A stretch of DNA of 64,000 bases from a bacterium (GTDB lineage Bacteria > SZUA-79 > Acidulodesulfobacterales > Acidulodesulfobacteraceae), in the NCBI GenBank assembly GCA_021794475.1, contig JAJYQS010000101.1, positions 12,408-76,407 of the forward strand, read 5' to 3'. The position numbers and the translations under genes were made by a program. Below are positions 1,519 through 54,940 of this stretch, in pieces; within the stretch, counting starts at the first letter, position 1, and the number at the start of each line of letters is the position of its first letter. The notes under the pieces were generated by a model. The model was not told the DNA's origin and searched no databases. It saw nothing but the letters and a program-made list of their open reading frames with translations.

Positions 1519-2943
1519 TTATTTTTCAACTACATCAATAAAATTTTCAAGCTGCATTCCTCTTGAACCTTTAAATAAAATTACGCTGCCGGCTTTATCT
1601 GCTGCAGCTAATTTTTCCTGAAAATCTTTTTTATCATCAAATAAAATTATTTTATCGGGATTAAAACCGCTGCTGATTAAACCGTCAATTAAAAATTTAC
1701 TATAATTGCCAGTATAAAAAACATAATCTGCAATTTTTGCGGCTTCTTCTCCTGCTTTAAAATGTTCTGTTTCTGCCGACTCTCCAAGCTCCAGCATATC
1801 GCCGAGGATAAGAATCTTTTTCTTGCCAGGATATGTATCTCTTATTGCATTGAATGCCGCCTTTAAAGAAGTAGGGTTTGAATTATAAGAATCATTTATT
1901 ATTATAGAATTATTAGAATTTTCAGATATTAGTTCCATTCTGCCTTTCGGCAATTCAAAAGATTCTATGGCTTCTATCCCTGAGCGGAAATCAACACCGC
2001 ATATATGGGCGGCTAAAATAGCGCACATAAAATCATATACAAAATGCAGTCCGTTTGGTTTCAATTTTGCTTTATAAGTTTCTCCATTATAAAGAAGCTC
2101 AAAATGCATAAATCCTTCAGAGTCTGCATTGAATTCAATATTTTTATATGTCAAATCGGCATTTTTTGCCCCAAACGAAATAAAATTTATTCCGGCGTCT
2201 GTTTTATACTTGCCTGCAAGAAGTGCATCATCAGCATTAATTATGAAATATGAACCTGAAGACATAGCTGAAACCATTGAATATTTTTCTTTCAGGACTC
2301 CTTCAAGATTTATAAACTCTTCTAAATGCGATTTGCCTATATTAATGATTGCCCCTACGTCAGGATTAATTATATTAGAAAGTTTTTCTATTTCACCTTT
2401 TTTATTTGTACCTATTTCAAGAATTAATAATTTATGACTGCCGTTTAATTCAAAAATAGTATTTGGAATACCTACCTGATTATTATAATTATATTTATTT
2501 TTCAGTATATAATTTTCTCCAAAATATTTGCTTAATATTACATAAAGCATCTCTTTTACGGTAGTCTTTCCGGATGAACCTGTTATAGCAATTTTGTGCT
2601 GCAAATTAAATAGACTCAAATACTTTTTCGCTAATAAACCATAAGCATAAAGCGTATCTTCGACAGCTATTATTGTTTTTTCCGCATATTCTGAAATATT
2701 ATTTTTTTCCAAAAAATCCCATGAAACTACAGCACATGGACATCCCATTTTAAATATCTTATCAATAAAATCTTCACCGTTAAAATTTTTACCTTTTAAA
2801 GCAAAAAAAATAGAATTCTCTGAAAAAAGGGCTCTGGAATCAATAAATACTTCGTTAAAAACTAGATGCGTGCCGAGCTTAACAGCTTTGCCGCCGGTTG
2901 CATTTAAGATATCATCTAAATTTAAGTTAAATTCTAATTTCAT
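1519..2943 (-). CDS. murF: UDP-N-acetylmuramoyl-tripeptide--D-alanyl-D-alanine ligase MurF
   Basis: Mur ligase P-loop ITGSSGKTT, C-terminal DSYNSNP motif, and position between murE and mraY. Confidence 0.9.
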   Translation of the reverse strand: MKLEFNLNLDDILNATGGKAVKLGTHLVFNEVFIDSRALFSENSIFFALKGKNFNGEDFIDKIFKMGCPCAVVSWDFLEKNNISEYAEKTIIAVEDTLYAYGLLAKKYLSLFNLQHKIAITGSSGKTTVKEMLYVILSKYFGENYILKNKYNYNNQVGIPNTIFELNGSHKLLILEIGTNKKGEIEKLSNIINPDVGAIINIGKSHLEEFINLEGVLKEKYSMVSAMSSGSYFIINADDALLAGKYKTDAGINFISFGAKNADLTYKNIEFNADSEGFMHFELLYNGETYKAKLKPNGLHFVYDFMCAILAAHICGVDFRSGIEAIESFELPKGRMELISENSNNSIIINDSYNSNPTSLKAAFNAIRDTYPGKKKILILGDMLELGESAETEHFKAGEEAAKIADYVFYTGNYSKFLIDGLISSGFNPDKIILFDDKKDFQEKLAAADKAGSVILFKGSRGMQLENFIDVVEK

Positions 2944-5096: not shown

Positions 5097-5176
5097 GATA
5101 GCAATTTAATTCTTTATTTAATTTATTTATTAAAATTCTTTACTTATTTATTTTATTAATTACTTATTTATTTTTT

Positions 5177-5243
5177 ATTGTTTTATTGTTTTATCGTTTT
5201 ATTGTTTTATTGTTTTATTGTTTTATTATTTTATCGTTTTATT
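5177..5243. repeat. tandem octamer array, about 8 copies of ATTGTTTT (variants ATCGTTTT, ATTATTTT)
   Basis: Read directly in the murE-ftsI spacer. Preceded by a duplicated TACTTATTTATTTT at about 5141 and 5161. Confidence 0.9.
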
Positions 5244-8452: not shown

Positions 8453-8896
8453 CTAAAAACCGATTTGCGACATGGTAGCGGATATAGTTTCAAAGTTTGC
8501 TTTTGCGTTTTCAAAATTGTTATCCCATAACCCTTTGTCCCAAATTTCAAATTTATTAATAATTCCTACAATCATAGCCTCTTTATTCAGTCCTCCGCTG
8601 CCCCTCAGCGAAGACGGTATCAAAAACCTGTCTTGGGAATCAAGTTCTAATTCTAACCCCCCTGAAAAAAAATATCTTAAAAATTCTAATACATCCTTTT
8701 GCATTGACGGTAATTTAAGTGCCTTTTCCTCAAGCTTTCTCCACTCTTCGACAGGATAAACTACGAGACATTTGTCTAAATTAGTAATTACAAGATTGGT
8801 ATCATTATAATTAGACACAAGCGCTTCCTTTATTTTCAATGGGAGCTTTATTCTGCCCTTATCGTCTATCGAATGAACGTATCTTCCGCTTAACAT
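8453..8896 (-). CDS. mraZ: transcriptional regulator MraZ
   Basis: 147 aa with a duplicated SpoVT/AbrB-like fold and the DxxGR signatures (DDKGRIKLP and DSQDRFLIP). First gene of the dcw cluster. Confidence 0.95.
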   Translation of the reverse strand: MLSGRYVHSIDDKGRIKLPLKIKEALVSNYNDTNLVITNLDKCLVVYPVEEWRKLEEKALKLPSMQKDVLEFLRYFFSGGLELELDSQDRFLIPSSLRGSGGLNKEAMIVGIINKFEIWDKGLWDNNFENAKANFETISATMSQIGF

Positions 8897-9100: not shown

Positions 9101-9113
9101 AGGGACGGACACC
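9101..9113 (+). repeat. degenerate copy (AGGGACGGACACC) of the dispersed 13-mer
   Basis: Two mismatches to GGGGACAGACACC. Lies 28 nt upstream of an exact copy. Confidence 0.7.
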
Positions 9114-9128
9114 TTTTATTGTTTAAAT

Positions 9129-9141
9129 GGGGACAGACACC
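9129..9141 (+). repeat. dispersed intergenic 13-mer GGGGACAGACACC, exact copy
   Basis: Read directly. Flanked by A/T runs (AAATGGGGACAGACACCTTTTTT). Confidence 0.85.
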
Positions 9142-9270
9142 TTTTTTAGAATAGAATAAGAATGGATTGAAAACACAGAGATACATGAAAATAAAAGATA
9201 GGTTAAAATAAGAATGGAAGCAATTAATTTGCAGTGTAATTCTAAAATAGAAGCTGACTATATTTGAAAA

Positions 9271-9666
9271 TTAAAAAAAATATGCATGAGCGCTCGATGT
9301 TTTAAGCGAATGCAGCGTCAGCATTCCGGCTATCTGGATAGGTTTTACGGAAGTCACAAGTATATCTTCTTCAAGATGAAGAAGTTCTTTGCTTTTAGAG
9401 CAGATATAAATATTAATATATTCACCGTCATTTGTAAGATAAGAAATATTCTCATTCATAAGCTGCAAATATCCGGTTTCTATTTTATCGCTTTTATTTA
9501 AGTCTTTGGTGTAAAGAAGAGGTGACCTTGCCATACTGAAAATGAAAATATTCTGCTCCATAACCGCTAGCGTTCTGGCAAATATTAAACTGGCAATACA
9601 TTTTTCAGGTTCTTTTTCAGGATCGGACAGCTGAACAATAAGAATATTAGAATTTTCTTCTTCCAT
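9271..9666 (-). CDS. hypothetical protein, possibly DsrE/TusD-family sulfur-relay-like
   Basis: 131 aa. By-eye resemblance to DsrE/TusD topology: N-terminal beta strand ILIVQLS, central INIYICSKS with a Cys at the position of the TusD active-site Cys, C-terminal ...LTLHSLKTSSAHAYFF. No search was run. Confidence 0.35.
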   Translation of the reverse strand: MEEENSNILIVQLSDPEKEPEKCIASLIFARTLAVMEQNIFIFSMARSPLLYTKDLNKSDKIETGYLQLMNENISYLTNDGEYINIYICSKSKELLHLEEDILVTSVKPIQIAGMLTLHSLKTSSAHAYFF

Positions 9667-9854
9667 AAAATTTAATAATTACATTTAAGTTAATTTAAAT
9701 TAGAGTATTGATACCGTTTTTTAAATCTTTATATTAATTAATAGAATAATAAATTTGAAATGGACATTATTGTTTCGCAAATTTCCATTTTTCAAATATT
9801 AAAAACGAAAAGAAATTATAAATTGAGAAAAACAAAATTAAAACATGTCCGTCC

Positions 9855-10769
9855 TTAATTTTCTACTTTTAAGTAATCGGTGAGCCAGTCTTTTAAATGC
9901 AGTCTGTTAAGTCCGAATAAATCATCAATTTCTTTCATATCGTTTTCACAGATATTATCGTATTTAAGCATTTTAATCTGGTCTGACGTTACAGGCAGAC
10001 CTTTTGCCCTAAAAAATTTTTCTACAAATTCAATCCCATTTTCAACTATAAACGACGGTGCATGAATTTTTATTTTTTTAGGAGGCATTATTTCCATTAT
10101 TAAATCTATAATACCTTCAAAAGAATAAATATCCGGTCCGCACAGAGTATATATTTTATGATATGCCGTTTCGTTAAATAAAGCTCCCGCGTACGATTTG
10201 GCAACGGACAAGACATCTACCGGAGCAAACTTGTCTTCGCCGGTTCCAATGATGGGAACAAAAAGCCGTCCTTTAATCAGTTTAATTAAATCGTCAAAAA
10301 AAGCCGCATTATCTCCAAATATCAGCGAAGGTTTAAAAATTGTCCAGTCTAATCCGGAGTTTTCAACTAACTTCTGACCTTCATACTTAGATGTATAATA
10401 AACGGATTCTGATTTCTCAGACGCCCCGTTAGCGCTCATGTGGACAAACCTTTTTATATTATGATTCTTTGCCAGTTGTAATAAAATTTCAGAATATTCA
10501 ACATGTACTTTTTGGAAAGAAAAATCGGACTGCTGTTTTATAATACCGACAAGATTTATTATAGCGTCAAATTTATTTTCAGCAAAAAAATCATCTAGAG
10601 AATTGATATTTTCCAGATTTCCTTCAAAAACCTCGAAACCGGTCTGTCTCAACGTTGAAGCCTTTTTACTGTTTCTTTCAAGTAAAACAACTGATGCTCC
10701 GCTCTTTTTTATTTCACCGCTAATTATCGAACCGACAAAACCTGTTCCGCCTGTAATAAAAACTTTCAT
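9855..10769 (-). CDS. NAD(P)-binding SDR-family protein (NmrA/NDUFA9/epimerase-like)
   Basis: N-terminal Rossmann motif MKVFITGGTGFVGS, 304 aa, extended-SDR layout. Confidence 0.7.
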   Translation of the reverse strand: MKVFITGGTGFVGSIISGEIKKSGASVVLLERNSKKASTLRQTGFEVFEGNLENINSLDDFFAENKFDAIINLVGIIKQQSDFSFQKVHVEYSEILLQLAKNHNIKRFVHMSANGASEKSESVYYTSKYEGQKLVENSGLDWTIFKPSLIFGDNAAFFDDLIKLIKGRLFVPIIGTGEDKFAPVDVLSVAKSYAGALFNETAYHKIYTLCGPDIYSFEGIIDLIMEIMPPKKIKIHAPSFIVENGIEFVEKFFRAKGLPVTSDQIKMLKYDNICENDMKEIDDLFGLNRLHLKDWLTDYLKVEN

Positions 10770-10942: not shown

Positions 10943-11899
10943 TTAAGATATATCCTTATAATCAAAATAATGTATTGCTTCAATATATCTTGCAGTTCTT
11001 GTTTTTGACCTCATAACGACAGAACTGGTTTTTGCTCCGCCGGGAAAAAAAACTACGCCAGGCAAATATTCGCCGGTTGTAACCCCTGTTGCGGCAAAAA
11101 TAACATCGCCGGAAGCAAGCTCATCTATGCTGTATATTTTATCGAAATCCTCAATGCCCATTTTCTTAGCGCGTTCTTTTTCTTCTTCGTTTCTAAATGT
11201 AAGCCTCCCCTGCATATCGCCGCCGACGCATCTGAGTGCGGCAGCGCTGATAACCCCCTCTGGAGCTCCGCCTATTCCCATAAGCACATCAACACCCGTA
11301 TCTTCTTTTGCCGCAGCAATAGCGCCGGAGATATCGCCGTCTTGAATCAATTTTATTCTTGCGCCGGACTTTCTTACTTCGCTAATTAAGTTTTGATGAC
11401 GTTCTCTATTGAGAATCACGACGGTAAGGTCTTCAACATATCTGTTGAGAGCCTCGGCAATTCTCTGAAGATTTTTAGAAGGACTGAGTGTTAAATCTAT
11501 CGCTCCTTTTGCTTTTGGTCCGACAGCTATTTTATCCATATAAGTGTCAGGCGCATGTAAAAAATGCCCGTGGTCGGCTATAGCCATAACCGAGATGCTG
11601 TTCTGCCCGCCCTGAGCGCAAATAGTCGTTCCTTCCAACGGGTCAACCGCTATATCTACCGCCTGTCCTTTACCTGTTCCGACTTTTTCGCCTATATAAA
11701 GCATAGGCGCCTGATCTCTTTCTCCTTCACCGATAACAATTGTGCCGTCAATATCTATCCAGTCAAGCGAACTTCTCATTGAATCCACCGCAGCCTTATC
11801 GGCAGCTTTTTCATCACCTCTTCCTACATGCTTTGCAGATGCGATAGCAGCATGTTCTGTAACACGTACAAACTCAATTGTTAAGGTCTTATCATCCAT
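10943..11899 (-). CDS. glpX: class II fructose-1,6-bisphosphatase (GlpX type)
   Basis: 318 aa with GlpX hallmarks (VTEHAAIASAKHVGRGDEKAADKAAVDSMR, DPLEGTT, MGIGGAPEGV). Confidence 0.9.
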   Translation of the reverse strand: MDDKTLTIEFVRVTEHAAIASAKHVGRGDEKAADKAAVDSMRSSLDWIDIDGTIVIGEGERDQAPMLYIGEKVGTGKGQAVDIAVDPLEGTTICAQGGQNSISVMAIADHGHFLHAPDTYMDKIAVGPKAKGAIDLTLSPSKNLQRIAEALNRYVEDLTVVILNRERHQNLISEVRKSGARIKLIQDGDISGAIAAAKEDTGVDVLMGIGGAPEGVISAAALRCVGGDMQGRLTFRNEEEKERAKKMGIEDFDKIYSIDELASGDVIFAATGVTTGEYLPGVVFFPGGAKTSSVVMRSKTRTARYIEAIHYFDYKDIS

Positions 11900-12041
11900 T
11901 TTTAGCCATCCTTATATAATTAATATATTATTAATCAGCGCATTAATTAATATATAAATCGACATATTACATTAGTCAATATAACAAATATGATAATGTA
12001 TAATTTTTAAAAAATTATCAAATTTTAATCCTTTTAATGCT

Positions 12042-12839
12042 TTAATCCTGTGGCAGAGGGCGCTCGGGAACACCGTCGTATTCATGCAGGTCAGACCTTA
12101 ATCTTCTGAATGGTTTTTCCCTGAGCCATTCTTCAAACACCTGTCCGACTAATCCCGCAGACCTTGCTATAATAAACAATCCTTTTCCGAGTCTATAATC
12201 TAAACCCATATCTGACATTATAGCGCCTATTGCTCCGTCAACGTTGAGAGGCAATTTTTGTTCAGGCTTTTTATTTTTAAATTCTTCGGCAATCGCAACT
12301 GCAAGTTCTACATAGGCACCGCCAAAATTTAATGATTTTGCGACTGTAAGCAGTCTTGTAGTTCTAGGGTCAATTGAGTGCAGTTTATGACCGTAACCTG
12401 CCAATCTTTTTTTATTCTTAAGCGCATCTTCGACTATTTTTTTAGCCGTTTCGGCGATATTAATATTTTTAACATCTTTATCTTTTAATTCGTCTTGAAA
12501 TAACTTGGCAGCTTTCTCTATAGCACCGCCGTGCGCATCTCCAAGTGTAAGTATTCCGCCGGCAACAGCTGCATTAAGAGAATTTCCGCCTGAAAATATG
12601 GTTCTCGCCGCAACGGCGGAAGGCGGAGCAATGCCTGCATCAATGCTTGAAACCAATATGGCATCAAGCATTTTTGCTTCAGCCTGATTCGGCATTTCTC
12701 CTTTTAAAAGAAGAAAACAGACGTCGGCATATGACTTATTTCCAATTAAATTATCGAGATTGTATCCGCGAATTAGAATTTTACCGTCCTGATTTGACGT
12801 TATAGCAGTGCGCCATTCTTTTGGTTTTTCATCAGACAT
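12042..12839 (-). CDS. ccl: citryl-CoA lyase (short citrate-synthase-like protein)
   Basis: 265 aa matching the C-terminal citrate-synthase/ACL lyase core (GDAHGGA, GYGHKLH). Adjacent to the ccsAB-like genes. Confidence 0.75.
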   Translation of the reverse strand: MSDEKPKEWRTAITSNQDGKILIRGYNLDNLIGNKSYADVCFLLLKGEMPNQAEAKMLDAILVSSIDAGIAPPSAVAARTIFSGGNSLNAAVAGGILTLGDAHGGAIEKAAKLFQDELKDKDVKNINIAETAKKIVEDALKNKKRLAGYGHKLHSIDPRTTRLLTVAKSLNFGGAYVELAVAIAEEFKNKKPEQKLPLNVDGAIGAIMSDMGLDYRLGKGLFIIARSAGLVGQVFEEWLREKPFRRLRSDLHEYDGVPERPLPQD

Positions 12840-27242: not shown

Positions 27243-27337
27243 TATCGATTAATTTCAATACTTTTTATTAATCAGGTTAATTAGTATTAATTGAGAACAG
27301 ATGTCTATTTTTTATAAACTAAAACAATAAAATAAAA

Positions 27338-27823
27338 ATGACTGAAAACGAAATATACAAACTTGATGAATACTTTATGAAAGCCGCAATAGAAGAAGCA
27401 GCCAACTCATACCAAATGGGGGAAGTTCCTGTCGGAGCCGTCATAGTAAAAAACAATAAAATAATTTCAGCTTCTTCAAACAGCGTAGAAAAGGATTTAT
27501 CGTCTGTTATGCATGCCGAAATCAAAGCAATTATGTCAGCGCAAAAAGTATTAAATTCATGGAGGCTAAGCGGCTGTACTCTATATGTAACATTAGAACC
27601 TTGTTTAATGTGCTGCGGAGCAATAATATTGTCCAGAATGGATAAAGTAATTTATGCTGCCGACGACCCTAAAGCCGGAGCAGTCAATTCTTTATATAAC
27701 ACTTTGTCCGACAAAAGATTAAACCATAATACGGAAATTCTTAGCGGTATTTTGAAGGAAGAATCATCTGCTTTATTAAAAAAATTTTTCCAGGCAAAAA
27801 GAAATAAGGGAAACCGCGATTAG
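27338..27823 (+). CDS. tadA: tRNA adenosine(34) deaminase
   Basis: Deaminase zinc motifs HAE and PCLMCCGA, 161 aa. Confidence 0.9.
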   Translation: MTENEIYKLDEYFMKAAIEEAANSYQMGEVPVGAVIVKNNKIISASSNSVEKDLSSVMHAEIKAIMSAQKVLNSWRLSGCTLYVTLEPCLMCCGAIILSRMDKVIYAADDPKAGAVNSLYNTLSDKRLNHNTEILSGILKEESSALLKKFFQAKRNKGNRD

Positions 27824-27829
27824 GAAAAT

Positions 27830-27842
27830 GGTGTCTGTCCCC
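27830..27842 (-). repeat. dispersed 13-mer, exact copy in reverse orientation (plus strand GGTGTCTGTCCCC)
   Basis: Read directly, 7 nt after the tadA stop, between convergent genes. Confidence 0.85.
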
Positions 27843-27869
27843 AATTTTGTCCATATTCCTAATTTTCTG

Positions 27870-29123
27870 CTATGCGCCTGTTTCTGCCATTTTACTTTCA
27901 TTTTTTGCATATCTGCTATAAGTATAAACTCCGCCTGTCAGGAGTATATTCGTAATTATAATGACCAAAAAAGCATATTCTGGAAAATCCTGAGTTCCGG
28001 CAACTCCGGCATTTAGAGGCATATAAGCCATTATTGCCGTTGCAAGTGCGCGCCCTATCATTGACCATAAAAAGTATTTTTCTCTTTTCGGAAGCGCATC
28101 CTCTTTCTTCTTTTTTAAATTTTCTAAGTAAAATGTTAAAGAAGCGCTTATATACCTTCCTGCTACTATCATTATTATAATAATAAAAAGTCTGTCGGCA
28201 AATTCCCAGCCTATGTGTGATAATTCTACTACAACACCTAAAAATACGAAAAAAAGCGTCCTTATTAAAAACGAGAACTCATAGTTAAACTGTTTTATGG
28301 AAGAATCTTTTAAACTCATTTTGAAAAAATTAACTTTCAACCTGGTCAGCAGTTCTTCATTCCCCATTACTATTCCGAAAACTAATATAGCTATTGCTCC
28401 GTTGCCTTTAACAAAATGGATTATCAGATACAGTATCAGCATGCCTCCGAATGTAATGGAATAGGCATATTTTGTTTTTGAAATATATTTTAATAAAACG
28501 AACCATATAATTCCAAATGCAATTGCTATAACTGATGAAATTCCGAAAGAATAAAGAAGACTCCCCGCCGTGGATAAATAGTTAACGGCTGCCGATGAAT
28601 TTTTTGCGAAATTTATTAAAACTATTAAGATTATTATTGCGAATGCGTCATTAAACGTAGATTCAATTGCTATCACCGTTTTATTTTTAGCGCTTGCGTT
28701 TATATTAGACAGAAGGGGCATTATAACGGTAGAGCTGGAGCATGAGACAATAGTGCCTAACATCAACGACTGCATCACATCTCCGCCTCCCATAATATAA
28801 AAAAAACTGCCTACAAGCACTATTGAAAGAAAAAGACCGATTAGAATCAGAATCATTGAATATATGGAACTTTTGAAAACAGTTATAAAATTGAGTTCGA
28901 GTCCGCCGGAAAACATTATGAGAATAAGAACCAAAGTGCTTAAATACGGTGCAAAATCTATAAAAAGCTGCTGATTGAAAATATGGTAAATAGGACCTAA
29001 AATAAGACCTGCCAGCATTAAAAATAAAATGGACGGAATTTTGGTAAAGGAGAAAAACATCTCTCCAACAAAACCGAGAAGAATAACTATTCCGATAATC
29101 CCTATAGCTATTGACGGGCTCAT
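27870..29123 (-). CDS. monovalent cation:proton antiporter (CPA1/CPA2 superfamily, Na+/H+ exchanger-like)
   Basis: 417 aa, about 11-12 predicted TM helices, sodium/hydrogen-exchanger-like layout. Family assigned by eye only. Confidence 0.7.
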   Translation of the reverse strand: MSPSIAIGIIGIVILLGFVGEMFFSFTKIPSILFLMLAGLILGPIYHIFNQQLFIDFAPYLSTLVLILIMFSGGLELNFITVFKSSIYSMILILIGLFLSIVLVGSFFYIMGGGDVMQSLMLGTIVSCSSSTVIMPLLSNINASAKNKTVIAIESTFNDAFAIIILIVLINFAKNSSAAVNYLSTAGSLLYSFGISSVIAIAFGIIWFVLLKYISKTKYAYSITFGGMLILYLIIHFVKGNGAIAILVFGIVMGNEELLTRLKVNFFKMSLKDSSIKQFNYEFSFLIRTLFFVFLGVVVELSHIGWEFADRLFIIIIMIVAGRYISASLTFYLENLKKKKEDALPKREKYFLWSMIGRALATAIMAYMPLNAGVAGTQDFPEYAFLVIIITNILLTGGVYTYSRYAKNESKMAETGA

Positions 29124-29249
29124 AGTGAAATTAACATCATTATTTTATTATATTATATGAATTATAATAGTATATGTTTGAATAAATATCAATACCAACT
29201 TATTATTTTATTGCTATTTTATTGCTATAAAAATTTATAAAATTTTTGC

Positions 29250-29278
29250 TTGACATAAATTTTTAATAATAGGATAAT
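29250..29278 (+). promoter_or_regulatory. near-consensus sigma70-type promoter TTGACA-17 nt-GATAAT
   Basis: TTGACA at 29250-29255, 17-nt spacer, GATAAT at 29273-29278, inside the 1.1-kb non-coding gap. Confidence 0.45.
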
Positions 29279-29473
29279 TTAAAAAAATAAAGATATAGCA
29301 TATATTAATGTATGTTAATATAGATAGCATTTTTTTATGCAGCGCATATAGCGCATATTTTTTATATTATAAATTATTATTAATAGTTATTAAGCATAAT
29401 TAACTTAATTTAACTTAGGATAATCGCATATAATATAAAAACTAATTTAATTATTTGTTATTACGGAGGCTTT

Positions 29474-29569
29474 ATGCAAAGTGAACCTGGTGGCAGTAGC
29501 AGCGGTCATTGCTTTAAAATAATTATTAAAATTAAAACTAAGGCAGCGCATATCAGCAAATACAAATAA
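29474..29569 (+). CDS. candidate small ORF, 31 aa (MQSEPGGSSSGHCFKIIIKIKTKAAHISKYK)
   Basis: GGAGG at 29465-29469, 4 nt before the ATG. About 190 nt downstream of the candidate promoter. No homology known to me. Confidence 0.2.
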   Translation: MQSEPGGSSSGHCFKIIIKIKTKAAHISKYK

Positions 29570-30252
29570 TAAATTAAATATAAATTAATAATCAATTCAG
29601 TTATTTTCCTCCGATTTCCTATAACTTAATTTATCTTAATTGATTTTTAACGGTATTTATTGTATTTGCTCTATGCTCTATATTGCAAATACAGATGTCA
29701 ATGTTAGAAATTAACGGATAAATTTTACCGCTTGTTTGCTTTTTTTTATCAATAAAATAAAAAATAAAGATACGGATAAAAATAGAAAGATTTAAATTAA
29801 TTCAATAAAATAACTTGACGAATTAATCAAATAAATTAAACCAGTCTGCTAAACACGCATATGGCTTTTTTATAATATCTATTTTATATCTATCTATCTG
29901 ATATATTTGACTTATTTATATCATAATATGTCTAACTTATTTATATCTTTATTTCCTTATTATTTTATTTCTTATATTTTTATGTGTTTAAAAAAAGTAA
30001 ATCTTCGGTATTACTTTACTCGTCTTTCACTGCTTTCCTATTTTGCCTTTATAATTTGTTTTAATAACCTGTTTTAATAATTTTAATAATTAAAATTTAC
30101 TAAAAGTTAATAAGTTAATAAGTTAATAGACTATAAAATATAATCGTTCCGACAGTAAGTAAGTAACTCATGCTATTTTATACATTGGCACATTTATTTA
30201 TACGTCTATGCGCATTAACATCTGCATTATCATCTATTATGTTAATTTATAA

Positions 30253-31632
30253 TTGCAAATTATGGGGGATTCCGCTATGAAAGATATGAAAGATATTAAA
30301 GATAAATTAGACGAACTTCCAATCGATATTAAATTAAGGGCAGTCGATAGATTAAAGATTCATATAATGAGACAAAAATACGGATATTTCTCAAGGCTTT
30401 GTCTGCTTCTTTCTCTTATCGGTCCCGGCATCCTTGTAATGATAGCAGACAATGACGCCGGCGGTGTAATTACTTACGCTCAGACAGGGTCAATTTTCGG
30501 TCTCGGATTTTTTATTCCTTTTATGGTCTTAATGCTTCCGGTTGCATATATAGTCCAGGAAATGACCGTCAGGCTGGGGGCAGTTACTCACAGGGGTCAT
30601 GCCGAAATGATCTGGAAAAGATACGGAAAATTTTGGGGCGCGTTCTCGTTAGCCGACTTGGTTATCGCAAATATTTTAACTTTAATCACGGAGTTTATCG
30701 GAATAACTTTAGGAATGCAATTTTTTGGTGTTTCTCCGGTTGTTTCTTCTATTGTCGCTTTAATTGTAGTTTTTTCAATACAGCTGTTTTTGAGATATTA
30801 TACATGGGAATGGATTAGTCTTAGTATTGCCGCATTAAATTTGATTTTTGTTCCATTGGTATTTTTTGTGCCGCATCTTCACTGGAATGCGGTTGCCGAT
30901 AGTTTTAAAACATGGCATATAAGCGGCGGCGTCAGCTCATTGTTTATTTATGTAGTCCTTGCAAATTTGGGTACTACGATAGCCCCCTGGATGCTGTTTT
31001 TTCAGCAGTCTTCAGTTGTAGATAAAGGATTAACCGTAAAAGATATAAGGGACGGGCAGATAGATACATTTGTAGGTTCTTTTTTTATGGTGGCGGTAGC
31101 CATTGCAATAGTTATCATAACCGGTTCCGTAGTGCATGGAGTTCAGGGCAGTTCTAATATGAGTATTGACCAGATATTGCATATAATTTCCATAAAAATG
31201 GGGATTATTCCGATGAAATTATTTGCACTAGGATTAATAGAAGCAGGTTTAATTGCAACAATTGCAATATCTGCAAGCACTTCGTGGGCCGCCGGAGAAG
31301 CACTGGGCTGGCCTAAAAGTATAAATCTTCCTCCGCTTCAGGGATGGTATTTTTATTTACCCGGGTTAATAAGCGTTTTAATTGCCGGCGGCGTTGTTTT
31401 AATACCGAATATTCCGTTAGGTTTTTTAAACTTAACTGTTCAGGTTGTGGCTTCTATATTTATGCCGGCTGCAATGCTGTTCTTACTCCTGCTGCTGAAC
31501 GATAAAGAAATTATGGGAGAGCATACAAATAAAAAATGGCAAAACATTTCGGCTTTTATAATAGTCGGATTTTTAATAATAATGAACGGATTATATGGAA
31601 TAACCGTGGTATTTCCGCATATTTTCGGATAA
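30253..31632 (+). CDS. SLC11/NRAMP-family transporter with non-canonical metal-site residues (NRMT-like)
   Basis: 459 aa NRAMP fold. Where canonical MntH has DPGN, this protein has DAGG (30454-30465). Where canonical MntH has GATVMPH, it has GTTIAPW. The track start is TTG at 30253; the ATG at 30277 (preceded by GGGGA) is an alternative start. Confidence 0.8.
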   Translation: MQIMGDSAMKDMKDIKDKLDELPIDIKLRAVDRLKIHIMRQKYGYFSRLCLLLSLIGPGILVMIADNDAGGVITYAQTGSIFGLGFFIPFMVLMLPVAYIVQEMTVRLGAVTHRGHAEMIWKRYGKFWGAFSLADLVIANILTLITEFIGITLGMQFFGVSPVVSSIVALIVVFSIQLFLRYYTWEWISLSIAALNLIFVPLVFFVPHLHWNAVADSFKTWHISGGVSSLFIYVVLANLGTTIAPWMLFFQQSSVVDKGLTVKDIRDGQIDTFVGSFFMVAVAIAIVIITGSVVHGVQGSSNMSIDQILHIISIKMGIIPMKLFALGLIEAGLIATIAISASTSWAAGEALGWPKSINLPPLQGWYFYLPGLISVLIAGGVVLIPNIPLGFLNLTVQVVASIFMPAAMLFLLLLLNDKEIMGEHTNKKWQNISAFIIVGFLIIMNGLYGITVVFPHIFG

Positions 31633-31708
31633 CAAATAATTAATATTAATAGCAGGAATAACAAAAACAACGCGAAGTAAATGATGCTTATTCAAATAAA
31701 ATTAAAAT

Positions 31709-31757
31709 AACTAATAACTAATAACTAATAACTAATAACTAATAACTAATAACTAAA
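31709..31757. repeat. tandem heptamer array, about 7 copies of AACTAAT
   Basis: Read directly, downstream of the NRAMP-like gene. Confidence 0.9.
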
Positions 31758-31790
31758 TAAAGTATACGTTAAAATAAATATAAATAATAG

Positions 31791-32069
31791 TTGGAGAAAC
31801 TTAAAATGGCATTAGACAATAAAAAAATAAAAAATAACCGCGAAGACAAAATGATAAAAAAATTGAACAACACTGAATCGCAAAATGGAACCAATTTGGA
31901 AGACGATTGGGACAATTTTGTGCAGGAAGAGGGGCTGATTGATTACAATAAAATCCCTCTTAAAAGAGCTGAAATAAAAGGCTGGGTCAAATTTGCCTTC
32001 TGGTTTTTACGAATTTATATAGTAGTTATGATTGTTCTTGTTATTATCGGATTTTCCAGAATTCATTAG
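31791..32069 (+). CDS. small membrane-anchored hypothetical protein
   Basis: Charged N-terminal part and one C-terminal TM helix (FAFWFLRIYIVVMIVLVIIGF). Likely true start is the ATG at 31806 (MALDNKK), with GGAG 9 nt upstream. Confidence 0.4.
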   Translation: MEKLKMALDNKKIKNNREDKMIKKLNNTESQNGTNLEDDWDNFVQEEGLIDYNKIPLKRAEIKGWVKFAFWFLRIYIVVMIVLVIIGFSRIH

Positions 32070-32094
32070 AAAATTGGGGAAAATGGGGGGAAAT

Positions 32095-32107
32095 GGGGAC
32101 AGACACC
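32095..32107 (+). repeat. dispersed 13-mer GGGGACAGACACC, exact copy, preceded by G-tracts
   Basis: Context reads AAATTGGGGAAAATGGGGGGAAATGGGGACAGACACCATTT. Confidence 0.85.
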
Positions 32108-32127
32108 ATTTAATTATTTAATTCTAA

Positions 32128-33708
32128 ATGGGTTTGTTAATGTTAATTATGAAAAAATTAATTTTTATATTAAAAGTTTTGAATTTTGCTATCTGCATTC
32201 AAATTATAACAGTTTGCATGCTTGTTGAGAATTCAAATGCGTTAAGCAAAATATCAGTAGGCGCCGGCAGTAATAATATAAGCAGAAGCTCCAATATTAA
32301 CATTAACAGGAAGACTGAGACTATTACCGGCTTAAATGAGCAGCTTTTAGACACATCAGACATAAACTATAACATCGGCAGAAAGACTTGTATTAACTGC
32401 AGAACGCACAATCACATGCAATCCTTTAATATCAGAAATTCTAACATTAGCATGAAAGCAGGCGGCGTTGACTTTAAAAACAGCTCTTTTTTATCACAGA
32501 TTAGACTTCTCGGCACATTTGCCGCTTCCTATACTTATAATTTTGCAGACCCTGTTGCAAATATTGAGTTTCCGCAAGGTAATTATAACGGAAATTATAT
32601 TAACGATTATAAAGTTAACGGTTTTACTATTAACGAATTAGACCTGAGCGTTTCCAAAAATGCGTTTTCAGACGGCAGGCATGCTTTCGGTCTTGGTTTC
32701 AGGGCAACATTTGATACCGGAGAAAATATACAGGACGTAGGACCTTATACCGGCAATTATTCTTACTACATAGAGTCTCTTTATAACAGACCGCTTTATG
32801 GTTTTAGGAATTTATTTATATCTTTTGGTTTACCGATTGGAAACGGTTTGAAGATTGATATAGGCGAAAAAAATTATCTCATAGGTTTTGAATCTTACAA
32901 CCTATCGAGATTATGGGAAAATACGTATTCGCCCATCACCGCCATAGAACCAGGAGAGCTGACCGGAATTTTTTTAAGCTATCCTGTTATTCCGAGAAAA
33001 TTAAAAATGGTCTTCGGAACGGCTATGACAGACAATGCTATGGTACCGATAGACAGGTATCCGACATTTGAGTTTATCGCCTCATATAAGCCGTTCGATG
33101 ATTTAAAATTTCACGAAGGAATAGTTTACGGAGCAGAGAATTTTGTAATATATAATAATAATTTAATACAGGATAATTTAAATAAATTTTTCTATAATTT
33201 TGCGGATGCCAAGTATAAACCGTTTCATTTCTGGACTTTTGTAATTGACTACGAAACTGGATTAAACGGAGGAATTAATAAATCAATTGTGAAAAATAGC
33301 GGCATAAATATTGACAAATTTAATTACTTAGGGGAAACGGCATCTTCGGTATATCCTGATTATTTAATTTCAACATCAAATGCAACGTATGACAAATCTC
33401 GTTTTTCAGGATTAGCCTTTTATATTCATCATTATAATTTATTAAATAATATAGGCAGATTTTCACAAACTATAAGGGAAGTCAGGGTATGGGACCCGCA
33501 GGGAATGTGGGAAGAAACCAGTATTCCGGGCGAGGCATTTAACTATTTTGATTCAACGCTGACTTTTGGTTTAAGACCGTCTTGCAGTTTTTTTAAAAAT
33601 ACACAGTTTAGACTGGAATTTGAAAATCAGTTAGCAAATCATAAAATTTACGGAGACGGAAACAGCATACAGAATACCGTCAATTTTATGCTCGTCAGAA
33701 CATTTTAG
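32128..33708 (+). CDS. putative outer-membrane beta-barrel protein (porin-like)
   Basis: Signal-peptide-like N-terminus (probable start MKKLIFILK at 32149), alternating aromatic/polar strands rich in Y/F/G/N, and a C-terminal ...NFMLVRTF ending in Phe, like the OMP beta-signal. Confidence 0.5.
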   Translation: MGLLMLIMKKLIFILKVLNFAICIQIITVCMLVENSNALSKISVGAGSNNISRSSNININRKTETITGLNEQLLDTSDINYNIGRKTCINCRTHNHMQSFNIRNSNISMKAGGVDFKNSSFLSQIRLLGTFAASYTYNFADPVANIEFPQGNYNGNYINDYKVNGFTINELDLSVSKNAFSDGRHAFGLGFRATFDTGENIQDVGPYTGNYSYYIESLYNRPLYGFRNLFISFGLPIGNGLKIDIGEKNYLIGFESYNLSRLWENTYSPITAIEPGELTGIFLSYPVIPRKLKMVFGTAMTDNAMVPIDRYPTFEFIASYKPFDDLKFHEGIVYGAENFVIYNNNLIQDNLNKFFYNFADAKYKPFHFWTFVIDYETGLNGGINKSIVKNSGINIDKFNYLGETASSVYPDYLISTSNATYDKSRFSGLAFYIHHYNLLNNIGRFSQTIREVRVWDPQGMWEETSIPGEAFNYFDSTLTFGLRPSCSFFKNTQFRLEFENQLANHKIYGDGNSIQNTVNFMLVRTF

Positions 33709-33768
33709 AAAATTAGAAAAATTGGATAAACAGCCGCCGATTAATTAAGTAAAATTAATTAAATTAAA

Positions 33769-33781
33769 GGGGACAGACACC
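33769..33781 (+). repeat. dispersed 13-mer GGGGACAGACACC, exact copy
   Basis: Read directly, between the convergent OMP and hppA genes, 6 nt from the hppA stop codon. Confidence 0.85.
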
Positions 33782-33787
33782 TTTAAA

Positions 33788-35860
33788 TTATTTCCATAAA
33801 ATTAATACGATGGGAACTATTAATATTGTAAAAATATTGACGACCTTTATCATCGGATTAATTGCCGGACCGGCAGTGTCTTTATAAGGATCGCCTACCG
33901 TATCTCCAGTAATAGCCGCTTGATGTGCAAAACTGCCCTTGCCGCCGTACGCTCCGCTTTCTATAAGTTTTTTTGCGTTATCCCATGCAGCGCCTCCGCT
34001 AGTCATTGAAATAGCAAGGAAAAGACCTGAAATTATAGTACCGAGCAAAATTCCTCCAAGAACAAGAGGCCCAAGGGTTAAACCGAAAATAACAGGGCCT
34101 GCTATAGGTATCAGTGCCGGCAATATCATCTCTTTTAAAGCAGATTTCGTGACTATATCAACGGATTTGCCGTAATCAGGTTTAGCCGTCCCTTCCATTA
34201 TGCCGGGTATTTCTTTAAATTGCCTCCTTACCTCAACTACTATCTCTCCTGCGGATTTTCCGACGGCTTTCATTGCCAGCGAAGCAAATAAAAAAGGAAA
34301 CATAGCGCCTATAAACAATCCTGCCAGAACGGAAGGCTGAGAAATCATAAAAATATAATGAATGGAACCATTTTCAATCAGCCTTGCATATTCTGCAAAC
34401 AGCACAATTGCGGCAAGTGCGGCAGAACCTATTGCATAGCCTTTTGTAACAGCTTTCGTAGTATTGCCGACGGCATCCAACGCATCGGTAGTTTCTCTTA
34501 CTTCGCTTGAAAGATTACTCATCTCGGCAATTCCTCCGGCATTATCCGTTATAGGTCCAAACGAATCTACGGAAATAATAATACCTGCCATAGAAAGCAT
34601 ACTGGAAGCTGCAATCGCAATACCGTAAAACCCTGCAAATCGATAAGACAAAATAATAGAAGCTGCAATAAATAAAACAGGCAGAGCCGTCGACATCTGT
34701 CCTACCGCCAGTCCGGCTATTATATTTGTGGCGTGACCGGTAGTCGAGGCCTTTGAAATAGACTTAACTGGAGCAAAATGCGTTGATGTAAAATAATCTG
34801 TTATGATAATAATAAAACCGGTAAGGAATAAACCTACCAGAGCGGCGTAATAATAATTTATAGTCGGGTAATCGCCTACCCCTTTCATAAAATACATTGT
34901 AAAAAAATAATATAAAACCGCTGAAATTATGCCTGTTGCAAACATTCCTTTATATAGGCCTTTCATTATTTTTTCTTTAGACGATGCCCCTACGAAAAAA
35001 ATTCCCGCTATAGATGTAACGACCGCTATAGCGCCTAACATCAAAGGATACATCATAGTTCTTATAAGAATATTAAAATCATAATATTTGAAAATAGAAT
35101 ATGCTAAAAGCATTGAAGCAATTATAGTCACCGCAAAAGTTTCAAAAACATCCGCAGCCATTCCCGCACAATCCCCTACGTTATCACCTACCTGATCGGC
35201 TATAACTGCCGGATTTCTTGGGTCATCTTCAGGAATACCTTCTTCAATCTTGCCTACAAGGTCGGCTCCTACATCCGCCGCTTTGGTATATATCCCGCCG
35301 CCAAGCCTTGCAAATACGCTTATAAGACTGCAGCCGAATGCAAACCCTATCATTGAATCTAATGCGCCGCCGACCGTGCCGGTTATATAGAACGATAAAT
35401 CAAGAAAAATAGAAATACCGAGAACGCCAAGACCAAGAACCATAAGCCCCGTTACCGAACCTGTTTTAAAGGCGAACTGCAGCGCCGATTTTGTTCCGTA
35501 TTTTGCAATCTCGGCAGTCCTGACGTTAGCTCTCACTGCGTTAAACATACCAAAATACCCGGCTGAGGCGGAAAGAACAGCGCCGAATACAAAACCTGCC
35601 GCAGTAAGCATTCCAAATTGCGGAACCCATATGCCTCCGACTAAAATTAACAGAAAAATAATAAAACCGACTATCGCCACCGTCCTATACTGCCGATTAA
35701 GAAAAGCTTTTGCGCCTTCCTGGATAGCGGCGGCAATTTCCTGCATTTTAGGAGTTCCGTCTGAATGTTTTAATGCCCAGAATGTTATTATAACGCTGTA
35801 AATTACTGCGATAATACCGGCTATAAGTCCAAACAGGATGGAATAATCAAATATAATCAT
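33788..35860 (-). CDS. hppA: membrane-bound proton-translocating pyrophosphatase, K+-independent signature
   Basis: 690 aa with motifs [49 protein letters not shown]. The [10 protein letters not shown] segment has Lys/Thr where K+-dependent enzymes have Ala/Gly. Confidence 0.93.
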
Positions 35861-46587: not shown

Positions 46588-46643
46588 ACGCCTATTCCTC
46601 CGAGTAAAAATAAGTTCAGTTAGACTTTAGATTATACTTTTAG

Positions 46644-46720
46644 TTTATAGTTTATAGTTTATAGTTTATAGTTTATAGTTTATAGTTTATAGTTTATAGT
46701 TTATAGTTTATAGTTTATAG
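46644..46720. repeat. tandem heptamer array, 11 perfect copies of TTTATAG (minus strand CTATAAA), with degenerate copies at both ends
   Basis: Read directly. Lies 57-133 nt upstream of the sat start codon. Confidence 0.95.
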
Positions 46721-47844: not shown

Positions 47845-47936
47845 TGGCGGAGAGAGAGGGATTCGAACCCCCGGTAAGCTTACGCCTACAATTGATTTCG
47901 AGTCAATCGCCTTCAACCGGACTCGGCCATCTCTCC
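47845..47936 (-). tRNA. tRNA-Ser (anticodon CGA), long variable arm, CCA encoded
   Basis: The reverse complement folds by hand: acceptor GGAGAGA/UCUCUCC, anticodon stem AUUGA/UCAAU with loop CUCGAAA, long variable arm, T arm GGGGG-UUCGAAU-CCCUC (one U-G pair), then GCCA. Confidence 0.9.
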
Positions 47937-48004: not shown

Positions 48005-48040
<36 letters not shown>

Positions 48041-54687: not shown

Positions 54688-54940
54688 TAATATTACACAA
54701 TAAATCACTAAGCTAAACAATTAATTAAATATAATTAAATAACAATTAAATAATTACGCTGTTTAAGTCAAATGGACAATTAAATATTGAGACGACGATT
54801 AAGTTACTCAGACAAAATAGACAACTGAGACAGACAATTAAGCTAAGAAAATACTTATTACATCGTCTCTAATGATATTTAATAATTTAATTAATTCAAT
54901 AAGTAAGCTTTATAATTATAATTAATATAATCATATAAGA

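Follow-up and report, generated by a model that had tools for sequence, protein, structure and literature searches.

An intergenic 13-mer in an Acidulodesulfobacteraceae genome as the probable core of a hairpin repeat linked to REP-type Y1 transposases

Results

Genes and repeat copies in the window

The window analysed here is a stretch of 64,000 nucleotides from a bacterium of the Acidulodesulfobacteraceae (GenBank assembly GCA_021794475.1, contig JAJYQS010000101.1, forward-strand positions 12,408 to 76,407). Its genes include, in this order, tadA, a Na+/H+ exchanger (antiporter) gene, an NRAMP gene, a small open reading frame (ORF), a BBP2-type porin gene and the gene for an H+-pyrophosphatase (H+-PPase), and in the spacers recurs a 13-mer, GGGGACAGACACC, which is the subject of this study. 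A first-pass annotation, made from the sequence alone, had drawn attention to four exact copies of this motif (Table 1) and had judged them far too many for chance. This judgement stands: 100 dinucleotide-preserving shuffles of the window returned zero copies, and base composition predicts, by our own estimate for both strands, ~2e-4. All copies in the window are intergenic, as had been stated, and the G/C content of the motif is 9/13 rather than the eight counted before.

Three degenerate copies had been proposed as well. The one at 9101-9113 is a genuine copy with two mismatches. The one at 9846-9854 is plausible as part of a decayed copy: its reverse complement, AATTAAGGACGGACATG, agrees by our count at 14/16 positions with AATTGGGGACGGACAT, the unit of an array in the related locus L136 described below. 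The third, at 54827, falls within GACA-rich sequence and does not permit a call. Allowing three mismatches across the window added just two matches, both chance-like, and a scan with model R1 returned few degenerate copies beyond the exact ones.

Table 1 Copies of the repeat and other noncoding features in the window
Feature	Position	Strand	Sequence and context
Hairpin copy	9121-9149	+	Core 9129-9141; between an ORF at 9271-9666(-) and mraZ at 8453-8896(-); R1 30.5 bits
Degenerate copy	9101-9113	+	AGGGACGGACACC; two mismatches, A7G variant; in tandem with the copy at 9129, same orientation
Probable decayed partial copy	9840-9860	-	Reverse complement AATTAAGGACGGACATG; called from its likeness to the L136 unit; abuts the stop of an epimerase/SDR-type gene at 9855-10769(-)
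Decayed copy	27290-27313	+	attGAGAACAGATGTCtatttttt; upstream of tadA; orthologous to the 4.5-unit L136 array
Hairpin copy	27822-27850	-	Core 27830-27842, beginning 7 nt past the tadA stop; tadA and the Na+/H+ exchanger gene converge on it, with stops at 27823 and 27870; R1 35.7 bits
Partial 5' repeats	32070-32094	+	AAAATTGGGG, AAAATGGGGGG; directly upstream of the full copy; TRF period 10, 2.8 copies
Hairpin copy	32087-32115	+	Core 32095-32107; flanked by the small ORF (31791-32069) and by the BBP2-type porin gene, which starts at 32128 or 32149; R1 37.8 bits
Hairpin copy	33761-33789	+	Core 33769-33781, ending 6 nt short of the H+-PPase stop (33788); on its other side the porin stop (33708); kept in relative L052; R1 41.4 bits
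AT-rich non-coding gap	29124-30252		1.1 kb, from the Na+/H+ exchanger gene to the NRAMP gene
tRNA-Ser(CGA)	47845-47936		
Tandem repeat TAGTTTA x13	46628-46720		Intergenic
Tandem repeat TTTATTGT x10	5167-5243		Intergenic
Tandem repeat AATAACT x7	31706-31756		Intergenic
Tandem repeat GATA x9	48005-48039		Intergenic

The repeat as a short hairpin

Read with its flanks, each copy has the form (A)AA(T)GG-GGACAGACA-CC(A)TT(T) and makes a short hairpin, in which GGGGACAGACACC supplies the loop and the closing G-C pairs and the A/T flanks supply the stem. The motif had been described as not self-complementary, which holds for the 13-mer alone but not for the 13-mer with its A and T flanks. Between window copies the stem changes in a compensating manner (AAATGG/CCATTT vs AAAGG/CCTTT). 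Predicted folding is weak, ranging from -4.4 to -6.6 kcal/mol; for half of the four hairpins it is no better than for shuffled sequence. Judged by folding and stem tables, the repeat is an imperfect extragenic palindrome of 20-40 nt that is able to fold, as is expected of a repetitive extragenic palindromic (REP) element. No copy carries GTAG or GTGG at the hairpin foot, the flanks being runs of A and T.

Membership in a described RNA family had been named as a point to check. In an Rfam scan of the window only tRNA-Ser reached the gathering score and no family matched the repeat; the same scan of nine motif-bearing loci gave nothing over the motif at E-values up to 1. The tRNA-Ser(CGA) gene is the sole RNA gene found in the window and has no adjoining mobile-element genes. 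A terminator scan of the 20-40 kb section placed every match within genes. An expanded variant of the hairpin, with a strong extra stem-loop inside the core, occurs in an Omnitrophota metagenome-assembled genome (MAG) (L014 7937-7990(-); AAAAGGGGA-TAGTCTGAGCTAACCCGGGTTAGCTCAGAC-ACCTTTT).

The same core in other genomes

Scanning one genome per species (596 Gb) returned at least 120 stretches with the motif. Since ~550 chance matches are expected in that amount of sequence, single matches inside genes carry no meaning. Among the matches listed, dozens share the hairpin context of A run and T run, and several MAGs hold multiple copies. Carriers include Collinsella, Omnitrophota, a Myxococcales MAG, an Armatimonadia MAG, Firestonebacteria, Aminicenantes, Paceibacteria and Kosmotogales, with local GC of the carrier loci spanning 0.28-0.73. 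The core is constant and the stem lineage-specific, reading CCACCACAAAGG...CCTTTGTGGTGG in Collinsella and GGAAATGG...CCATTTCC in the Myxococcales MAG. Together with those of the window, the scan loci amount to 302 exact copies, and the Omnitrophota MAG contigs L023 and L028 each hold three exact copies within ~7-8 kb.

Pairs of copies in the scan loci show a marked geometry. Neighbouring copies no more than 150 nt apart stand in '+-' order in 72 cases, in '-+' order in 1 and in the same orientation in 23; the spacers of the '+-' pairs, all in loci other than the window, measure 9-139 nt. By analogy, these '+-' doublets look like gene-less mini-elements comparable to REPINs.

In two Collinsella loci (L016 6948-7190 and L094 2334-2580), inverted hairpin copies enclose ~200 nt with a two-copy long inverted repeat, TCTCGATCTGTAACA...TGTTACAGATCGAGA. 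This stretch is kept between both compared Collinsella genomes and could be a small RNA or an operator.

Searches of other collections returned little. A scan of IMG/VR gave 11 matches, of which L127 carries the Collinsella-type hairpin, L123, L130 and L131 pass a loose A/T-flank filter only, and the others are without hairpin context; the L127 copy, at 8775, probably belongs to a prophage or to chromosomal sequence classed as viral. Plasmid and phage collections yielded no BLAST match, a literature search for the 13-mer and its 11-mers as strings retrieved unrelated eukaryotic primers only, and E. coli rRNA showed neither similarity nor complementarity to the motif.

Tandem partial units often precede full copies on the 5' side. 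They consist of an A run and a variable share of GGGGACA, for instance AAAATGG, AAAATGGGG or four units of AATTGGGGACGGACAT, and were seen in the window (Table 1), in L136 (4585-4660), in L268 (9880-9958 and 10672-10730, on both flanks of a transposase gene) and in L090, L077, L095, L018 and L017. Partial units after the 3' end are rare, with one possible case in L043. An instance in L108 was set aside, as it sits in a lysine-rich coding tail. A retro-copy or telomerase-like origin of the partial units was considered and not adopted; the AT-rich spacers of the window are full of short tandem repeats anyway.

A Y1 transposase gene between inverted copies

Clustering of the ORFs within 3 kb of the motif at the first 120 loci found no family common across phyla. 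A transposase escaped this clustering, since its gene is flanked by no more than one or a few of the copies in a genome. The gene came to light in a metagenome scan with AAAWGGGGACAGACACCWTTT as query, whose listed matches include many contigs with close inverted pairs. In one of these, L156, copies at 67(+) and 791(-) enclose an ORF of 219 aa at 90-746 that matches Pfam Y1_Tnp with an E-value of 6e-15. Its best NCBIfam match is REP_Tyr_transpos (REP-associated tyrosine transposase, RAYT) with 76.2 bits.

The arrangement recurs. With the L156 protein and its relatives as tblastn queries, L247, L163 and L255 show the same layout of a gene between inverted copies, and in L154, L207, L234, L006 and L092 the transposase gene is truncated by the contig end with the motif alongside. 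In the 251 loci (1.55 Mb) that had been retrieved solely by DNA pattern, nine Y1_Tnp segments lie no more than 50 nt from an exact copy. The reverse approach started from the protein: a homologue search with the transposase collected 6,155 proteins at E-values up to 1e-20, and six of them (P0046, P0077, P0093, P0119, P0144 and P0153) were chosen on protein similarity and contig size only. All six carry the hairpin on both flanks of the gene. Typically, the start of the 5' copy precedes the ATG by ~50-65 nt and the 3' copy follows a few to ~25 nt after the stop, with the '+-' geometry of the doublets applying around the gene too.

The core on the flanks follows the enzyme. At 74-66% identity to the L156 protein it is GGGGACAGACACC, at 61% GGGGACAGCGACC and at 59-56% GGGGACAGCGCCC, so that the 3' half of the core shifts as the enzyme diverges. 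The HUH motif (NHVH), WQ and YVENNP are unchanged throughout an alignment of eight proteins (213-223 aa). Among solved structures, those of IS200/IS605 TnpA (ISDra2, IS608 and a Sulfolobus enzyme) gave a weak match to a profile of the enzymes; a single-sequence search of solved structures gave no match.

In these contigs, then, two inverted copies of the same hairpin enclose the transposase gene. The hairpin is also scattered through intergenic DNA as singles, '+-' doublets and small clusters, and its core co-varies with the enzyme. Of the explanations first offered for the 13-mer, the remnant of a REP-like or miniature inverted-repeat transposable element gains support from the REP-type Y1 transposase genes that the repeat flanks in other contigs. 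A gene between two copies in L029 was rejected as a transposase, appearing by eye to encode an HD-domain protein. L023, where three hairpin copies lie, contains in addition an 80-aa ORF (2001-2195(-)) whose first ~65 aa match the transposase N-terminus (58% identity to the L271 protein); it lies away from any copy and is probably a gene remnant.

Turnover at orthologous sites

Two relatives of the window allow individual sites to be compared. In the close relative L052 (H+-PPase 98% and porin 84% identical), the element occupies the same two places as in the window at a higher copy number, the extra copies including a GGGGACACC variant and a ~105-nt tandem duplication in the porin/PPase spacer. 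L136 (porin 75% identical) keeps the order tadA, antiporter, NRAMP, small ORF, porin and H+-PPase, has no copy at the tadA/antiporter or the porin/PPase junction, and upstream of its porin gene retains only decayed copies. Upstream of its tadA lies a 4.5-unit array of AATTGGGGACGGACAT, where the window retains a decayed copy. Strains with identical porin are identical at both sites. As copies differ or vanish at orthologous places in L052 and L136, the sites decay individually. On this comparative evidence, decaying individual sites together with perfect copies persisting in each genome fit a proliferating repeat better than site-by-site selection.

The mutually inverted copies at 27830 and 33769 had been proposed to bracket a 5.9-kb cassette of transporter genes. 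More generally, the copies could be recombination sites, of the integron attC or tyrosine-recombinase type, that delimit cassettes; inverted arms around an asymmetric conserved centre and the position of copies at gene boundaries would suit such a role. The cassette reading fails because the segment between the two copies has an unchanged gene order in L136, which has neither of them, an outcome that the first-pass annotation had itself named as refuting. The bracketing pair also stands in the '-+' geometry met once against 72 '+-' pairs, the segment holds ordinary chromosomal genes of a housekeeping kind, a scan of 20 window ORFs turned up neither an integrase nor a recombinase, and GTTRRRY/RYYYAAC core sites are absent when read directly from the sequence. 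We consider recombination sites scarcely credible, and a false lead is thereby removed: the transporter segment is not a mobile cassette.

The spacers of this genome are generally slippage-prone. The 1.1-kb gap is very AT-rich, contains many short tandem repeats and has no Rfam match, and perfect or near-perfect tandem repeats occur in four further intergenic places (Table 1). In L136, ~80 nt beside the H+-PPase 3' end are tandemly duplicated in the porin/PPase spacer (11790-11930), a duplication different from that of L052. In other assemblies, the short contigs that belong to this same strain mostly start near 31870, ~257 nt ahead of the porin gene, and the region upstream of this point therefore assembles poorly.

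Rival readings: a host RNA element or a protein-binding site

The location of the copies, a few to tens of nucleotides past stop codons, raises the question of whether the hairpin is a host RNA element, that is, a standardised intrinsic terminator or a stabiliser of 3' ends, with a loop recognised by some conserved RNA-binding factor and with transposase adjacency being secondary. Collinsella offers the best case: its copies lie 14-28 nt past the stops of unrelated genes, its hairpin is strong (-24.6 kcal/mol) and followed by T runs, and orthologous copies keep their pairing through changes on both arms. The window hairpins, by contrast, are weak, half of them folding like shuffled sequence. 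Orientation relative to the upstream gene is without significant bias, at 16 sense, 8 antisense and 5 both in a programmatic count; a sense bias in an initial hand tally (18:4) was dropped on this basis. G:U and A:C stem positions are about equal (6 vs 9), favouring neither strand; copies decay or vanish at orthologous sites of relatives; and there is no Rfam match. An RNA element also leaves the 72:1 doublet geometry and the co-variation of core and enzyme unexplained. We therefore regard it as improbable as an overall account; a terminator or RNA-stabiliser role is possible in Collinsella but finds no general support.

Selection at each site for binding of a conserved cellular protein to double-stranded DNA, for example a MraZ-type or nucleoid protein, might account for the core being identical across phyla, and two copies lie upstream of mraZ. 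Upstream TGGGG boxes also recur with a 9-11-nt period. Against this, no other motif-bearing locus among those clustered in the protein comparison has mraZ in common with the window, individual sites are not kept between relatives, and the partial upstream units vary in length from locus to locus and thus form no fixed box. The MraZ boxes described in PMC8475190 precede the dcw cluster, and M. genitalium has its sole occurrence at the mraZ promoter, on which grounds a MraZ operator was rejected. Such a protein site is, in our assessment, highly improbable. The further suggestions of a DNA uptake sequence and of a nucleoid or termination-factor site found no support. The carriers are phyla with GC of 0.28-0.73, individual copies decay between relatives, and orientation to genes shows no significant bias.

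Discussion

RAYT-like genes with terminal inverted repeats (TIRs) in place of GTAG REPs have been named TIRYTs or TIRtrons; GGGGWSAS is common to many of their repeats, some of which make up moderately abundant families with single, dimeric or clustered copies (Di Nocera et al. 2013, PMC3733652). Most TIRYTs correspond to TnpAY1 subclass 2.1, equivalent to RAYT group 1, which is marked by NHVH (or NH[YF]H), W[EQ], a YIELNP-like motif, a C-terminal extension resembling a helix-turn-helix, and a patchy distribution over multiple phyla (Quentin et al. 2018, PMC6006769). GGGGACAG, the outer end of the flanking repeats, fits GGGGWSAS, and the signature of the enzymes, which come from related contigs and not from the window, fits subclass 2.1 in Table 1 of PMC6006769; the window motif is therefore assigned to the TIRYT repeat class. 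Our interpretation, held with high confidence, is that the 13-mer forms the constant core of a hairpin repeat, 20-40 nt long, belonging to a REP-type Y1 (HUH) transposase family, namely TIRYT/RAYT group 1/TnpAY1 subclass 2.1.

Several observations weigh against this interpretation. Neither the 64-kb window nor L052 or L136 contains a Y1_Tnp gene by tblastn, so that the tie of the window copies to a resident enzyme is one of family membership only, and the window inventory comprises single copies and one same-orientation tandem pair, with no '+-' doublet. The REP_Tyr_transpos score of the L156 protein falls just below the curated cutoff of 80, and L266, from the six-gene reverse test, has its two flanking copies pointing the same way. 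TIRtrons have been described with long TIRs and without mention of REP-like hairpins, the survey of Quentin et al. 2018 (PMC6006769) having found no REP-like structures or hairpins beside subclass 2.1 genes, whereas the repeat described here is a short hairpin with a core loop and an A/T stem. In the TIRYT papers cited here, no activity of any TIRYT on its own repeats has been shown.

Under the proposed assignment, the enzyme would recognise the folded, single-stranded hairpin, cut it and rejoin the ends, by analogy with E. coli TnpA-REP and the TnpA of IS200/IS605, and this cutting and rejoining would spread the repeat in trans. The doublets would be the likely mobile unit, similar to REPINs, and the singles their remnants. 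The four exact copies, the one with two mismatches and the roughly two decayed ones in the window would then be dispersed singles left in spacers after genes, where they may add weak hairpins at transcript 3' ends. Identity of the core across phyla would reflect the enzyme's sequence requirement combined with horizontal spread of the transposase subclass, which has already been reported for subclass 2.1.

A more specific version of this scenario is conceivable, if rather unlikely: a single subclass 2.1 clade with an unusually strict requirement for the 13-nt loop would have moved repeatedly between very distant phyla (GC 0.28-0.73), on every occasion seeding a family with the same core and a lineage-specific stem; hosts would use the copies as generic gene-end hairpins, and the 5' partial units (AAAATGG, AAAATGGGG), present beside transposase genes too, could be the trace of copying that the enzyme broke off or repeated. 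A step of this kind is not known for Y1 transposases.

The assignment places an intergenic repeat of a poorly known acid-mine-drainage lineage, whose relatives are labelled Deltaproteobacteria or Candidatus Acidulodesulfobacterium, in a described class of elements. It also shows that TIRYT-type (subclass 2.1) transposases can have short, REP-like hairpin flanks with a common 13-mer core in many phyla, which the 2018 survey did not find. The DNA signature AAA(W)GGGGACAG(ACA/CGA/CGC)CC(W)TTT offers a simple means of finding such elements and their transposase genes in metagenomes, and the hairpin is a defined substrate on which a TIRYT could first be tested biochemically.

Comparison with known systems

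IS200/IS605 elements have the same catalytic fold and likewise use subterminal hairpins as recognition elements. They differ in protein family, the L156 protein scoring 23 bits with the IS200 model vs 76 with the REP-type model, and in organisation: here no tnpB was found among the called genes adjoining the six transposase genes examined, and the repeats far outnumber the gene.

The canonical REP/REPIN-RAYT systems of E. coli and Pseudomonas (RAYT groups 2 and 3) are closer. They, too, consist of short extragenic palindromes with common inverted doublets, of inverted copies flanking a single, domesticated-looking Y1 transposase gene, and of copies after genes and between convergent genes; REP_Tyr_transpos is moreover the best NCBIfam match of the enzyme described here. 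Yet canonical REPs begin with a 5' GT[AG]G tetranucleotide not met here, conserve the hairpin foot where the present repeat conserves the loop and closing pairs, and are paired with enzymes of subclass 2.2 or 2.5 instead of 2.1.

TIRtrons share the Y1/HUH enzyme with NHVH, WQ, Y-x-x-N-N-P and a C-terminal extension, the gene between GGGGWSAS-type inverted repeats at similar distances, and the dispersal of repeats as singles, dimers and clusters with a patchy occurrence across many phyla. They differ in that here identity across many phyla extends beyond the 8 nt to the full 13-mer, copies can be locally dense (as in some Omnitrophota MAG contigs), and no transposase gene is seen within the window. 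The TIRYT class with its GGGGWSAS inverted repeats, dispersed as singles, dimers and clusters, is thus already known; new here are the short hairpin form, the identity of the whole 13-mer across phyla and the co-variation of core and enzyme.

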